Shown here: positions 2,254 to 9,736 of the stretch, one piece after another
How positions within the stretch are numbered: position 1 is the first letter of the stretch
How the letters are laid out: every line of letters starts with the position of its first letter
The notes under the pieces: generated by a model
The model's database searches: none
What the model saw: the letters and a program-made list of their open reading frames with translations, nothing else
What the model was told of the DNA's origin: nothing
Assembly: GCA_046761065.1 (NCBI GenBank)
Contig: JBHIFL010000096.1
Span: 1-13,480 of the forward strand
Reading direction: 5' to 3'
Source of the DNA: Candidatus Heimdallarchaeota archaeon
GTDB lineage: Archaea; Asgardarchaeota; Wukongarchaeia; Wukongarchaeales; JBHIFL01
Length of the DNA stretch: 13,480 nt
Made by a program: the position numbers and the translations under genes

Positions 2254-3618
2254 ATGCAAGTGATCGCTGATTTACATATCCATGGACCAAAGAGCGGAGG
2301 AAGCTCGAGGAACATGAATTTTGAAAATCTAGCGCTCAATGCCGCATTAAAAGGCGTAGATATCGTTACAACCAGTGATTTCACACAACCAGAATGGACA
2401 AAAGAGATTAAGGAAAAGCTCGAATATTCTGAAAGTTCAGGCTTGTTCAAGTTGAAAGATCGCTATATTGCTGATAAAGACAAATCAAAGGTAAAAAGAA
2501 CACGATTTATCCTCGGAACTGAAGTAAATTGTACCTTCGATTCGCCAATTGAAGGTGAAAAACGAAAAAAACAGATCCATCATGTCCTCTTAGCCCGATC
2601 GTTGGAAATTACTAACCAACTAACGGAAGAGTTACAACGGTTTGGGAAGCTTGAGCGACTGGGTAGACCTTCGTTACATGTGTCTGCAGCTGAACTTGTA
2701 GAAATTGTAAAAGAAATTGACCAAGCCAATTTGATCTTTGCGGCCCACATATGGACGCCACACTTCTCCCTGTTTGGCGCCAACTCTGGATTTAATAACC
2801 CTAAAGATTGCTACGGCAATCAATTGAATAAAATAGATGCCCTTGAAACAGGCCTTTCTTCGGATCCTTTAATGAATTGGAGAGTCTCCTCACTCGATAA
2901 GTTTGTTCTAGTCAGCAACAGTGATGCGCACAGTCCATCTCCTTGGCGGCTTGGAAGAGAAGCAAATCAATTCGAACTTCCGCGGATCACTTATGAGGAA
3001 TTGGTTGAGGCTATCCAGCATCCTTCCAACGGAAAATTTAAGCAAACTATCGAGTTTCCTCCACCCCTCGGCAAGTATCATTGGACTGGCCACCGGAAAT
3101 GTGCAGTTTGCCTTGCTCCTACCGAAGCTTTACAACTCGCGAATCACTGCCCAGTATGTGGTAAAAAACTTACAATCGGTGTTGATCAACGTGTTGAAGA
3201 ATTAGCAGATCGACAAAGTCCAATTCGGCCATCTGGATCCCCAGGATTTATATTCCTTGTACCACTTCATAATTTATTGGCTTTAGCACTTAATATTACC
3301 ACGTTAAACAGCAAAAAAGTAAATCAGATGTTTGTCAAAATGATCAAAAGATTTGGATCAGAATATGCAGTCACATTACAAGCCAGCTATACAGAATTAC
3401 AAGAAATAACAAATGAGCAAATCGCCAAAGCGATCTACGCAATGCGCTTTGGAAAATATCAGATCTTTCCAGGTTCGGATAATCAGTATGGCCAGTTAAA
3501 CTTATATTTAAATGACGTTACTGGAATGGAAACAGAAAAAGAAAGGAAATTGCCTACTATCGGAAATGGAACTCGAGGTAAACAAGGTGACTTGGCCAAA
3601 TATTTTCGAATATCTTAA
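2254..3618 (+). CDS. endoQ: Endonuclease Q family (TIGR00375-like) PHP-domain DNA repair nuclease with Zn finger and C-terminal PIP box
   Basis: Motifs DLHIH, IHHV, AHIWTPHFS, ETGLSSDP, SNSDAHS, LGRE and GKYHWTGHRKC...CPVCGKKLTIGVDQRVEELADR. The C-terminal QGDLAKYF matches the QxxLxx[FY]F PCNA-binding motif. Confidence 0.88.
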   Translation: MQVIADLHIHGPKSGGSSRNMNFENLALNAALKGVDIVTTSDFTQPEWTKEIKEKLEYSESSGLFKLKDRYIADKDKSKVKRTRFILGTEVNCTFDSPIEGEKRKKQIHHVLLARSLEITNQLTEELQRFGKLERLGRPSLHVSAAELVEIVKEIDQANLIFAAHIWTPHFSLFGANSGFNNPKDCYGNQLNKIDALETGLSSDPLMNWRVSSLDKFVLVSNSDAHSPSPWRLGREANQFELPRITYEELVEAIQHPSNGKFKQTIEFPPPLGKYHWTGHRKCAVCLAPTEALQLANHCPVCGKKLTIGVDQRVEELADRQSPIRPSGSPGFIFLVPLHNLLALALNITTLNSKKVNQMFVKMIKRFGSEYAVTLQASYTELQEITNEQIAKAIYAMRFGKYQIFPGSDNQYGQLNLYLNDVTGMETEKERKLPTIGNGTRGKQGDLAKYFRIS

Positions 3619-4228: not shown

Positions 4229-4837
4229 TCATTCTTCGACTATTGCATATTGTGTACGGAAGAAAAAGCCCATAAATACTACGACAATTGCAGTGATCAC
4301 AATAAGACCAATTGCAGCCCAATTAAAGCCTAATTCGGTATAGACCATACCGAAACCCATGTTAATGAGTCCAATGATGCCTCCGATAATTAAAGAGAAA
4401 AGCATATAGCGGGAGATACTTTGTTTCCCACGTTCCAGCTCTTCTTCAGCCAAGGAACCCACGCCCAAGCGGGGACCAAGAACTGTAAGGAGTATAAGGA
4501 ACCCGTAGGCAACAATAATCATTGAAGCGAGGTCAAAGAGGAGGCGCTCATGAGCCGGAAAGAAGACACCACCTGACAATACAGCACAGACAGCATAGAG
4601 AAAGGCAAAGATATTGGAAAAGAGCATATCGTCGGGATGAGTGTAACCGCCGATCTCTGTAAAGGTGGTGAAAAACGCACTGATGAACACAATTGCAAAT
4701 ATACCGATAGCTCCAATATAGACTGGGATTAAATCTGAAGGTTCGACTTCAGTAAGAAGGAATGGAATGAACACAGCAATGCCTAGAACTGCTAATCCTA
4801 TACCAGTGAACAATAGTCCAATAACCAAGAATCGCAT
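4229..4837 (-). CDS. Hypothetical multi-pass (about 6 TM) membrane protein
   Basis: 202-aa ORF with several long hydrophobic segments and an AGGAGAG SD upstream. No family recognised. Confidence 0.8.
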   Translation of the reverse strand: MRFLVIGLLFTGIGLAVLGIAVFIPFLLTEVEPSDLIPVYIGAIGIFAIVFISAFFTTFTEIGGYTHPDDMLFSNIFAFLYAVCAVLSGGVFFPAHERLLFDLASMIIVAYGFLILLTVLGPRLGVGSLAEEELERGKQSISRYMLFSLIIGGIIGLINMGFGMVYTELGFNWAAIGLIVITAIVVVFMGFFFRTQYAIVEE

Positions 4838-7427: not shown

Positions 7428-7763
7428 TTATGGGGGTAATAATTCTTCGAACTTTGCGCCCCAGATTTGTAAAAATTCGAAGATCTCTGCATGTGTTTGT
7501 TGCAGTTCTTTGTCTTTGGTTAGTAGTAAGGGATCGGTGTGGACTTGTACAATGAGATTTCCTTCTGGTGGCCATTGAATAATTATTTTTACTGCTTTAT
7601 CTGTCCTCCGTACATATTCTACTGTAAAAATTGGCACTTCAACAGTGTCAGTGTATCTTATCTCATGCCGTTGAAGTAACTGCTTGAATTCTTCCTTTAT
7701 CTCAGCCCAGATGGTTCGTTCTTTAAAGGTTGCTTTATATGAGGGCATACGTGAGGAATTCAT
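7428..7763 (-). CDS. Hypothetical protein (111 aa)
   Basis: Compact ORF co-oriented with its neighbours, protein-like composition, AAGGTG upstream. No family recognised. Confidence 0.7.
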   Translation of the reverse strand: MNSSRMPSYKATFKERTIWAEIKEEFKQLLQRHEIRYTDTVEVPIFTVEYVRRTDKAVKIIIQWPPEGNLIVQVHTDPLLLTKDKELQQTHAEIFEFLQIWGAKFEELLPP

Positions 7764-9421: not shown

Positions 9422-9462
9422 ATTCATAAATGAATATACTATAGGCTCATTAACGTGGAGGT
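9422..9462 (+). promoter_or_regulatory. Putative promoter/operator and SD of the Lrp/AsnC RAM-domain gene
   Basis: Palindrome ATTCAT-AA-ATGAAT (9422-9435) overlaps a TATA-like TTCATAAA. A strong SD GGAGGT at 9457-9462 ends 7 nt before ATG 9470. Confidence 0.55.
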
Positions 9463-9469
9463 TATTTTC

Positions 9470-9736
9470 ATGCCAATGGCGTTTGTCTTACTAAACACAG
9501 AGATTGGGTCAGAAGATGCGGTTCTAGAAGAATTGATGAATATCCCTGGAGTCCAAGAAGCATACTGAAGTAGAAGCTCTATCTCAGGCTGAGATTTGGT
9601 CTACGGGGTTTATGATCTCATTGCAAAGATCCAAAGCGATAACATGGATACGTTAAAGAATGTAATTATGACAAAAATAAGGCAGTTGGAAAAAGTTCGT
9701 TCGACTCTTACCATGATTGTCATTGAAAGTAGCTAG
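9470..9736 (+). CDS. Stand-alone Lrp/AsnC ligand-binding (RAM) domain protein (demi-FFRP), interrupted: join(9470..9563,9594..9736), 78 aa
   Basis: Genomic translation is MPMAFVLLNTEIGSEDAVLEELMNIPGVQEAY*SRSSISG*DLVYGVYDLIAKIQSDNMDTLKNVIMTKIRQLEKVRSTLTMIVIESS*. Removing 30 nt gives the typical ...IPGVQEAYLVYGVYDLIAKI...KVRSTLTMIV pattern of archaeal AsnC C-terminal domains, with no other lesion. Confidence 0.88.
9564..9593 (+). other. Candidate 30-nt BHB-type (tRNA-endonuclease-spliced) mRNA intron
   Basis: Outer helix CCAAG 9553-9557 / TTTGG 9595-9599, extendable to 12 of 14 pairs over 9544-9557 / 9595-9608. Central helix AAGC 9558-9561 / GCTG 9588-9591 (3 pairs plus A.G). 3-nt bulges ATA 9562-9564 and AGA 9592-9594. 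Inner hairpin CTGAAGTAGA-AGC-TCTATCTCAG. Cuts after the second bulge nucleotide remove both UGA stops and keep the frame. Confidence 0.8.

Follow-up and report, generated by a model that had tools for sequence, protein, structure and literature searches.

A predicted bulge-helix-bulge intron in the coding sequence of an Asgard RAM-domain gene

Introduction

In the literature searched, cbf5 is the one gene for which splicing of the EndA type within the coding sequence has been documented in archaea, and there solely in Crenarchaeota. In members of the Desulfurococcales and Sulfolobales the cbf5 coding sequence contains an intron of the bulge-helix-bulge (BHB) type, whose motif is often relaxed and which has been linked to a heteromeric EndA (PMC2738675). 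For HVO_1309 of Haloferax volcanii an EndA-processed intron was found in the 5' untranslated region, and cbf5 was called the only other reported mRNA case (PMC7714728). Here we describe an interrupted gene of the Lrp/AsnC family (in the following the AsnC gene) within a 13,480 nt long stretch of DNA from a Candidatus Heimdallarchaeota archaeon, to which we refer as the window (assembly GCA_046761065.1, contig JBHIFL010000096.1). The gene encodes a RAM-domain protein and contains an insert at positions 9564-9593, which is very likely removed from the mRNA by the tRNA-splicing machinery as a BHB-type intron.

The AsnC intron resembles that of cbf5 in being a short BHB-type intron in an archaeal coding sequence, with a relaxed motif and with gain or loss among close relatives, and in a host whose heteromeric EndA would accept relaxed motifs outside the tRNA context (PMC2738675). 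While cbf5 encodes a pseudouridine synthase of Crenarchaeota, the gene described here encodes a RAM-domain regulator in an Asgard phylum, and several coding genes of its genome, rpoA1 and EF-2 among them, appear to be interrupted likewise. A further difference is that splicing of cbf5 has been shown experimentally, whereas that of the AsnC gene is predicted. With HVO_1309 it would share the role of an mRNA substrate for the archaeal splicing endonuclease outside tRNA and rRNA; in HVO_1309, in contrast, the intron is located in the untranslated leader, the reading frame is uninterrupted and the EndA of the host is homodimeric and strict (PMC7714728). The BHB introns of Asgard tRNA genes are similar with respect to the predicted enzyme, the motif and the repeated gains at BHB-capable sites, but they reside in tRNA genes, and mRNA is not mentioned in that preprint (bioRxiv 10.64898/2026.10.13.758758).

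The literature searched contained no publication on BHB-type mRNA introns in Asgard archaea. Within this scope, the suggestion of the initial annotation of the window that such an intron is new for Lrp-family genes and for Asgard mRNAs holds. Splicing without a spliceosome is also known for the HAC1/XBP1 mRNAs, which are cleaved by Ire1 and ligated by Trl1 in yeast and by RtcB in metazoa. The parallels to the AsnC intron are the use of protein enzymes, a small intron, the mRNA of a regulator as substrate, cut sites within stem-loops and a ligation of the RtcB type. Nuclease and motif are different, and HAC1/XBP1 splicing is stress-regulated.

Results

An insert with in-frame stop codons interrupts a RAM-domain gene

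All coordinates without a prefix are window positions on the plus strand; the window is contig C96 of its own genome, G000, while loci with the prefix L that are compared with it (L053, L215, L216 etc.) come from other assemblies. An ATG at 9470 opens a frame that ends at the TAG at 9734-9736 once two in-frame TGA codons are ignored. These elements and the Shine-Dalgarno-like sequence upstream, all listed in the initial annotation, are present in the sequence (Table 1). Gene callers split the gene. Its first exon has a codon log-odds score of 10.6, and the 88-residue read-through product matches the family PF01037 over profile positions 2-72/73 (E 2.6e-12, 46.9 bits at a cut-off of 25). Taken alone, the part 3' of the stop codons matches profile positions 30-72.

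When 9564-9593 are deleted, a 78-aa protein is obtained that can be aligned end to end, and gap-free across the junction, with approximately 20 intact homologues. The gene thus exceeds its homologues by exactly 30 nt, and the claim that this particular excision provides the spacing of the protein family is borne out. In related genomes the junction region of the homologues reads EA(Y/F/S/H)(L/I/V)VYGVYD, with VYGVYD being present in all of the approximately 20 sequences.

The predicted product is a stand-alone Lrp/AsnC RAM-domain protein (demi-FFRP) with no helix-turn-helix domain. An intact relative, P0003, matches the solved structure 2ZBC over its full length (E 1e-20), and the closest solved relatives are the stand-alone RAM proteins 2ZBC, 2CVI and 2E1A, which comprise 75-83 residues and consist of the RAM domain only. 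Compared with the known demi-FFRPs (DM1 of P. horikoshii, 2E1A/2Z4P, 2CVI; 2ZBC), with their approximately 75-83 residues and their lack of a DNA-binding domain, the predicted protein shows no difference; what is new is the structure of its gene. A gene for a Ras-family GTPase adjoins the interrupted gene. A search of the genome revealed no second similar copy of the intron, nor did the intron have a match in Rfam, such that it is neither a repeated mobile element nor a known RNA.

The insert is predicted to fold into a relaxed BHB motif

The minimum free energy (MFE) fold of the RNA around the insert has an energy of -24.2 kcal/mol and a z-score of -2.26. In the predicted structure (Table 1) an outer helix adds 7 pairs to the 5-bp helix H, both formed between the exons. 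Each of the two bulges lies 3' of its strand of the central helix, which is the polarity of pre-tRNA BHB motifs, and in each of the four intron copies that we describe below the bulges comprise 3 nt. Cutting after the second bulge nucleotide on both strands removes precisely the 30 nt and gives a gap-free EAYLVYG, the joined reading being GAA GCA UAU UUG GUC (EAYLV). The predicted spliced junction consists of CAAGAAGCAU joined to AUUUGGUC, the downstream side being ACUUGGUC in relatives, and the predicted junction peptide of the spliced protein is EAYLVYGVYDLIAK.

The fold described in the initial annotation is recovered with one correction. Helix H, the bulges and an intron hairpin with 9 of 10 pairs are as claimed. 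In the central helix A9558 faces G9591 unpaired, so that AAGC and GCUG form only three of four pairs in the window.

How often would cut rule and protein alignment agree by chance? A BHB motif of at least the quality of that in the window and with an intron length of 30 occurs 26 times in the 8.84 million strand positions of G000 (2.9e-6 per position). With about 5 placements that are able to remove both stop codons, the probability of a chance agreement between the cut rule and the deletion demanded by the protein is approximately 1.5e-5.

Table 1. Features of the interrupted AsnC gene and its predicted RNA fold (window positions), and relatives carrying the same insert (accessions).
Feature	Position or accession	Strand	Remarks
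Shine-Dalgarno-like GGAGG	9457-9461	+	8 nt 5' of the ATG; kept in L053, L215 and L216
Exon 1	9470-9563	+	31 codons and base 1 of the junction Tyr codon; ends with GAA GCA U
Intron (predicted)	9564-9593	+	30 nt; in-frame TGA at 9566-9568 and 9590-9592
Exon 2	9594-9736	+	last 2 bases of the junction codon, 46 codons, TAG
Outer exon-exon helix, 5' strand	9544-9551	+	pairs with 9601-9608; MFE fold; 96% of cells paired in four sequences
Helix H, 5' strand CCAAG	9553-9557	+	pairs with 9595-9599; 5 bp, one G-U; 100% of cells paired
Central helix h, 5' strand AAGC (exon 1)	9558-9561	+	pairs with 9588-9591
5' bulge AUA	9562-9564	+	predicted cut 9563/9564; AUA or AUU in four copies
Intron hairpin H'	9565-9587	+	9565-9574 with 9578-9587, 9/10 pairs, 3-nt loop 9575-9577
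Central helix h, 3' strand GCUG (intron)	9588-9591	+	
3' bulge AGA	9592-9594	+	predicted cut 9593/9594; AGA or AUA in four copies
3' strands in exon 2	9595-9608	+	helix H 9595-9599, outer helix 9601-9608
Relative L053	JABAOC010017534.1		30-nt insert, syntenic
Relative L215	GCA_048887265.1, JBHLJX010000599.1		30-nt insert, syntenic
Relative L216	JGI Ga0310066_1075694		30-nt insert, syntenic

Exons and base pairs of the intron are conserved in relatives

The initial annotation had proposed to look among relatives for inserts at the same site with variable loops and covarying pairs. A metagenome scan and a protein-cluster search provided such inserts: 30 nt at the identical site in three further assemblies (Table 1), with Ras and UbiA genes alongside in each of them. 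The insert is thus present in four independent assemblies, which excludes an assembly artefact and settles an objection that had been raised beforehand.

One explanation for the in-frame stops is a decaying pseudogene, i.e. a dispensable RAM-domain gene inactivated by a stop-bearing insertion of 30 nt. The splitting of the gene by callers and the existence of other RAM-domain genes in the genome would be in line with this. The substitution pattern makes such a decay extremely unlikely. Between the window and L053, exon 1 and exon 2 are 93.6% and 94.4% identical, the intron 77% and the intergenic DNA 54-69%. For the spliced coding sequence the ratio of non-synonymous to synonymous substitution rates (dN/dS) amounts to 0.09 against L053 and 0.04 against L215, and to 0.055-0.093 in the three pairs with L216, for which dS (1.2-1.9) is near saturation. 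Both exons are thus under strong purifying selection (dN/dS 0.04-0.10) even where synonymous sites saturate. In exon 2 synonymous exceed non-synonymous changes by 6:1 against L053 and by 11:1 against L215. Such a constraint on the part 3' of the stops means that the gene is translated through the junction. None of the four lineages has acquired further indels or stop codons in the gene, and the spliced proteins of the intron-bearing copies are 86-96% identical. The dS of the RAM-domain gene against L053 (0.24) is about half of that of the neighbouring genes (approximately 0.52), which may be due to an RNA-structure constraint on exon bases within the BHB helices.

The intron itself is far more variable, with 15-25 of 30 positions being identical between pairs of copies, while its base pairing is kept. 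The junction codon encodes Tyr in all four copies and is generated by the same cut sites (U/AU or U/AC; here and below a slash within a motif marks the predicted cut). Across the four sequences 92.3% of the cells of BHB pairs hold standard pairs; after shifting the partners against each other by 1-3 columns the value drops to 21-53%. Compensatory double changes are found at four pairs. Two of them are in the central helix (A-U to G-C in L216 and G-C to U-A in L215, where the change on the exon side also turns Ala to Ser), and two in the hairpin of L216 (U-A to C-G and A-U to C-G). The A.C mismatch in the hairpin of the window is a G-U pair in L053 and a G-C pair in L215 and L216, and the G-U pair of helix H is G-C in the three other sequences. 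Of the 10 pairs of hairpin H', L216 forms 8 and the three other copies form 9-10 (92.5% of cells paired). The observed pairing values were reached by only 4-16 of 500 column shuffles, and the folding z-scores of the copies range from -1.3 to -3.4. For L216, which agrees with the window at only 15 of 30 intron positions, the MFE structure comprises the helix, a bulge, a 3-bp central helix and the hairpin.

These data also bear on a read-through or recoding of TGA (as selenocysteine, Trp or Gly), which would yield an 88-residue protein with a 10-residue loop insertion. The insert is in frame, its length being divisible by three, and a single TGA is found in three of the copies, as this explanation would have it. 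Nonetheless we consider read-through highly improbable. TGA is an ordinary, frequently used stop in G000, where it terminates 480 of 1629 long open reading frames (ORFs) and 5 of the 11 genes of the window, and the second TGA of the insert is lost in three copies. The peptide encoded by the insert is not conserved (SRSSISG*D, GRISISGIY, GRISVSGLD and GRHPAPGPD); the changes within the insert preserve the RNA pairing rather than residues. Moreover, the insertion would be placed at RAM profile position 29/30, inside the conserved EAYLVYG, where the family is free of gaps.

The site is empty in other relatives and a paralogue was interrupted independently

The intron is not fixed in the lineage. 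The loci L220, L221 (syntenic) and L222 have no intron and run through the site as GCA UAU CUU or equivalent, and their proteins are 78-88% identical to those of the intron-bearing copies. Presence and absence of the intron thus vary between lineages that are fairly close. A search of 400 genomes of the phylum found no other interrupted orthologue among species representatives; the orthologues found there are intact and 231 nt long. At L221:1501-2336 three tandem RAM-domain genes instead of one lie between a KaiC-like ATPase and a Ras GTPase.

A number of candidates for further interrupted copies were rejected. The 45-aa matches P0011 and P0014 were taken at first for further, more distant copies with an interruption. 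Among the loci concerned, L218 and L219 turned out to be intact genes with a miscalled start, and the frameshifts of L217 look like assembly or sequencing errors. The internal TAG of a match at G004:C27 is a terminal stop.

A RAM-domain paralogue in G020, a genome that belongs to a different family of this phylum, is interrupted as well (L022:1072-1102 on the minus strand, G020:C151). Its insert is 31 nt long, shifts the frame and is located 18 nt further 3' than the intron site of the window. It folds into a BHB motif with a complete central helix (GGGU with ACUC, 4/4 pairs) and an intron helix of 8 bp. From this fold, before any orthologue was aligned, we derived cut sites that give GUA U/AC GAU (GVYD). 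In four congeneric species (L211-L214) the gene is intact, and the 31-nt alignment gap is located exactly at the predicted cuts. A motif of this quality at a fixed length occurs with a frequency of 6.8e-7 per position in G000. The G020 insert thus appears to be an independent and recent gain, with an empty site in the congeneric species as control.

Further coding genes of the genome contain inserts

Two genes for core proteins of G000 are interrupted as well. The rpoA1 gene (RNA polymerase A') contains a 31-nt frameshifting insert with an in-frame TGA (L225:2347-2377 on the minus strand, G000:C2:18012-18042), and its match to Rpb1 domain 1 begins at profile position 30. The sequence reads ITAD, followed by 31 nt and by TYDEDGTP in another frame; excision restores ITAD/TYDEDGTP exactly. 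Here the predicted BHB motif is canonical, with an outer helix of ACG and CGU, a central helix of GCAG and CUGU (4/4 pairs) and the bulges AU/C and AA/A. In EF-2 a 33-nt in-frame insert with a TAA is located inside the invariant DTPG/H (L140:1738-1771, G000:C76 approximately 15448-15481). It folds as a 10-bp hairpin in a relaxed BHB context with a 3-bp central helix. A direct repeat, CGGAC, borders the EF-2 insert on both sides and provides matching GGA codons 33 nt apart, with which hopping of the ribosome is formally possible for this gene. RNA polymerase A' and EF-2 are indispensable; the organism must therefore remove such inserts efficiently.

Some other irregular genes were noted in G000. 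A uS5 domain match at G000:C19:7235-7405, in a 164-aa open frame, begins at profile position 9, with the first 8 positions being absent. At G000:C15:16076-16503 (minus strand) an ABC ATPase domain is divided into two matches (positions 2-51 and 52-137) with a 4-nt overlap; the frame is shifted here, but nothing is inserted. Four stop codons are found in a third, partial actin match at G000:C20:30439-30687 (minus strand, positions 322-407), which represents either a copy in decay or a gene with several interruptions. In the window, no Pfam family matched the ORFs 2254-3618, 4229-4837 and 7428-7763 (454, 202 and 111 aa) at E <=0.01.

The host is an Asgard archaeon with a heteromeric-type endonuclease

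The assembly of G000 comprises 4.4 Mb in 234 contigs (91% complete, 8% contamination). It encodes two eukaryote-type actins (445-454 bits) and has a profilin match above the Pfam cut-off, which was seen in none of 14 control genomes. Of the matches to genome contigs that bear a phylum name, the best one is to a metagenome-assembled Heimdallarchaeota genome. Together with the Ras-family GTPase, these features identify the host as an Asgard archaeon, as had been presumed from the window.

Two ORFs with a PF01974 domain were found. The first (195 aa, C15) has kept the Tyr/His/Lys catalytic pattern of EndA, while the second (214 aa, C2) contains an EndA domain without the catalytic His, which is as expected for the alpha and beta subunits of a heterotetramer. 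A single RtcB gene (PF01139) is present on C14. Asgard archaea have been described to possess an (alpha-beta)2 EndA with an L1 loop that is associated with a broad substrate range (PMC5829648). Using aragorn, only 19 tRNA genes were detected in G000, and 16 of these contain introns; many others probably escape recognition because they are too heavily interrupted. This pattern fits the heavily interrupted Asgard tRNA genes described previously (bioRxiv 10.64898/2026.10.13.758758).

Evidence for and against excision by EndA

Several observations weigh against a BHB-type intron in the AsnC gene. In every copy one of the 4 positions of the central helix, either position 1 or position 2, is mismatched, so that only 3 pairs are left, and thermodynamic folding predicts this helix only in L216 and partly in the window. 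The covariation was obtained from four sequences only, three of which are close kin. A search of 5.8 billion protein clusters with exon 2 retrieved no protein of 78 aa with an identity of 96% or more, and hence no spliced cDNA that had been assembled, a result that is uninformative rather than negative. Finally, we scanned the genome structure-first for BHB motifs that, when excised, would fuse two open frames of coding-like character, using the mirrored non-substrate geometry as control. Canonical motifs were no more common than mirrored ones (72 versus 103 loci and 115 versus 127).

From the pairing and folding of the central helix it follows that the motif is relaxed and not of the textbook kind. 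Relaxed motifs are the kind accepted by (alpha-beta)2 enzymes (PMC5829648, PMC2738675). The absence of enrichment over the mirrored control means that a motif together with the joining of ORFs is not evidence by itself and that the scan has no power to count introns. The case for the AsnC intron consequently rests on its position, which is fixed by homology, and on the comparative data. When a perfect central helix was required, the scan gave a small excess of 6 canonical over 1 mirrored motif, and by coding score the AsnC site ranked first. The locus of rank 2 (G000:C26:15724-15772, L223:825-873) comprises 49 nt with a 4/4 central helix between two ORFs. We did not accept it as an intron, since each ORF holds a complete MgtE domain and the two may be adjacent genes; the pair is either a spliced two-domain transporter or two neighbouring genes.

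Removal might also be achieved by other enzymes, e.g. by a hairpin-specific nuclease in combination with a ligase, or the two halves of the protein might be made separately and assemble. The central helix, imperfect in every copy, and the EF-2 insert, which fits only as a relaxed motif, leave some room for other enzymes, and the TTG at 9596 could serve as start codon of a separate second half. We judge these possibilities to be very unlikely. No Shine-Dalgarno sequence is found 5' of 9596, and separate halves would divide the RAM domain inside the conserved EAYLVYG. With respect to other enzymes, the canonical polarity of the bulges, their length of 3 nt and the nucleotide-exact restoration by the EndA rule in three independent cases (AsnC, G020 and rpoA1) point to EndA.

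A different way to bypass the stop codons would be at the level of the ribosome. In translational bypassing, as in gene 60 of phage T4 and in the byp elements of yeast mitochondria, the ribosome would stall at the TGA by the hairpin, slide over 30 nt and resume at UUG. The stop lies within one codon of the last codon of exon 1, where also the stable hairpin begins, and the GGA codons of EF-2 are matched as hopping requires. In the AsnC gene, however, every one of the four copies has a take-off codon that differs from its landing codon (UAC with GAU, UUC with UAC, and UUC with GAC twice). Hopping also has no use for a central helix between exon 1 and the intron 3' end, in which compensatory changes were found, and the inserts of rpoA1 and G020 follow the BHB cut rule to the nucleotide. 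There is thus little chance that the ribosome hops over the AsnC insert, and we retain excision by EndA as the preferred explanation.

Discussion

The initial annotation regarded the AsnC transcript as a spliced mRNA. Selection on the exons, covarying pairs, the usage of TGA as stop and the EndA and RtcB genes of the host all lend support to this proposal. Cleavage, ligation and the exact cut sites are inferred from the established BHB rule, from which the following picture is obtained. After transcription, exon 1 (9544-9561) would form helices with two partners, namely exon 2 (9595-9608) and the 3'-terminal region of the intron (9588-9591). A 10-bp hairpin would form within the intron, such that two 3-nt bulges on opposite strands arise, each of them 3' of a central helix of 4 positions. 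The heteromeric (alpha-beta)2 endonuclease would then cut after the second nucleotide of each bulge, i.e. after 9563 and after 9593. RtcB would join the exons, and the 30-mer would probably be circularised. The joined message, with its restored junction codons, would be translated through EAYLV.

The intron of the RAM-domain gene is probably part of a phenomenon that involves multiple genes. Taking the interrupted genes together, we lean towards a scenario in which BHB introns have spread from tRNA genes into coding genes, among them the RAM-domain regulator, the essential RNA polymerase A' and EF-2, and in which splicing of mRNA by EndA and RtcB is routine and obligatory. For the RAM-domain gene, splicing could act as a switch between a 32-residue stub and a functional amino-acid sensor.

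Compared to the single documented gene family, cbf5, the AsnC gene would represent a second one, in a new phylum, for which the comparative evidence is strong. With four intron-bearing orthologues, several intron-less ones and an independent gain, it offers a tractable system for the colonisation of genes by introns. It also reveals an error that annotation makes systematically, since such genes are split or missed by gene callers; Asgard gene inventories and estimates of completeness are distorted as a result. If the predicted splicing takes place, neither a spliceosome nor group II introns are needed for interrupted coding genes and an obligatory splicing of mRNA to arise. In the scenario of a spread into coding genes, mRNA splicing would be routine in a close prokaryotic relative of eukaryotes.

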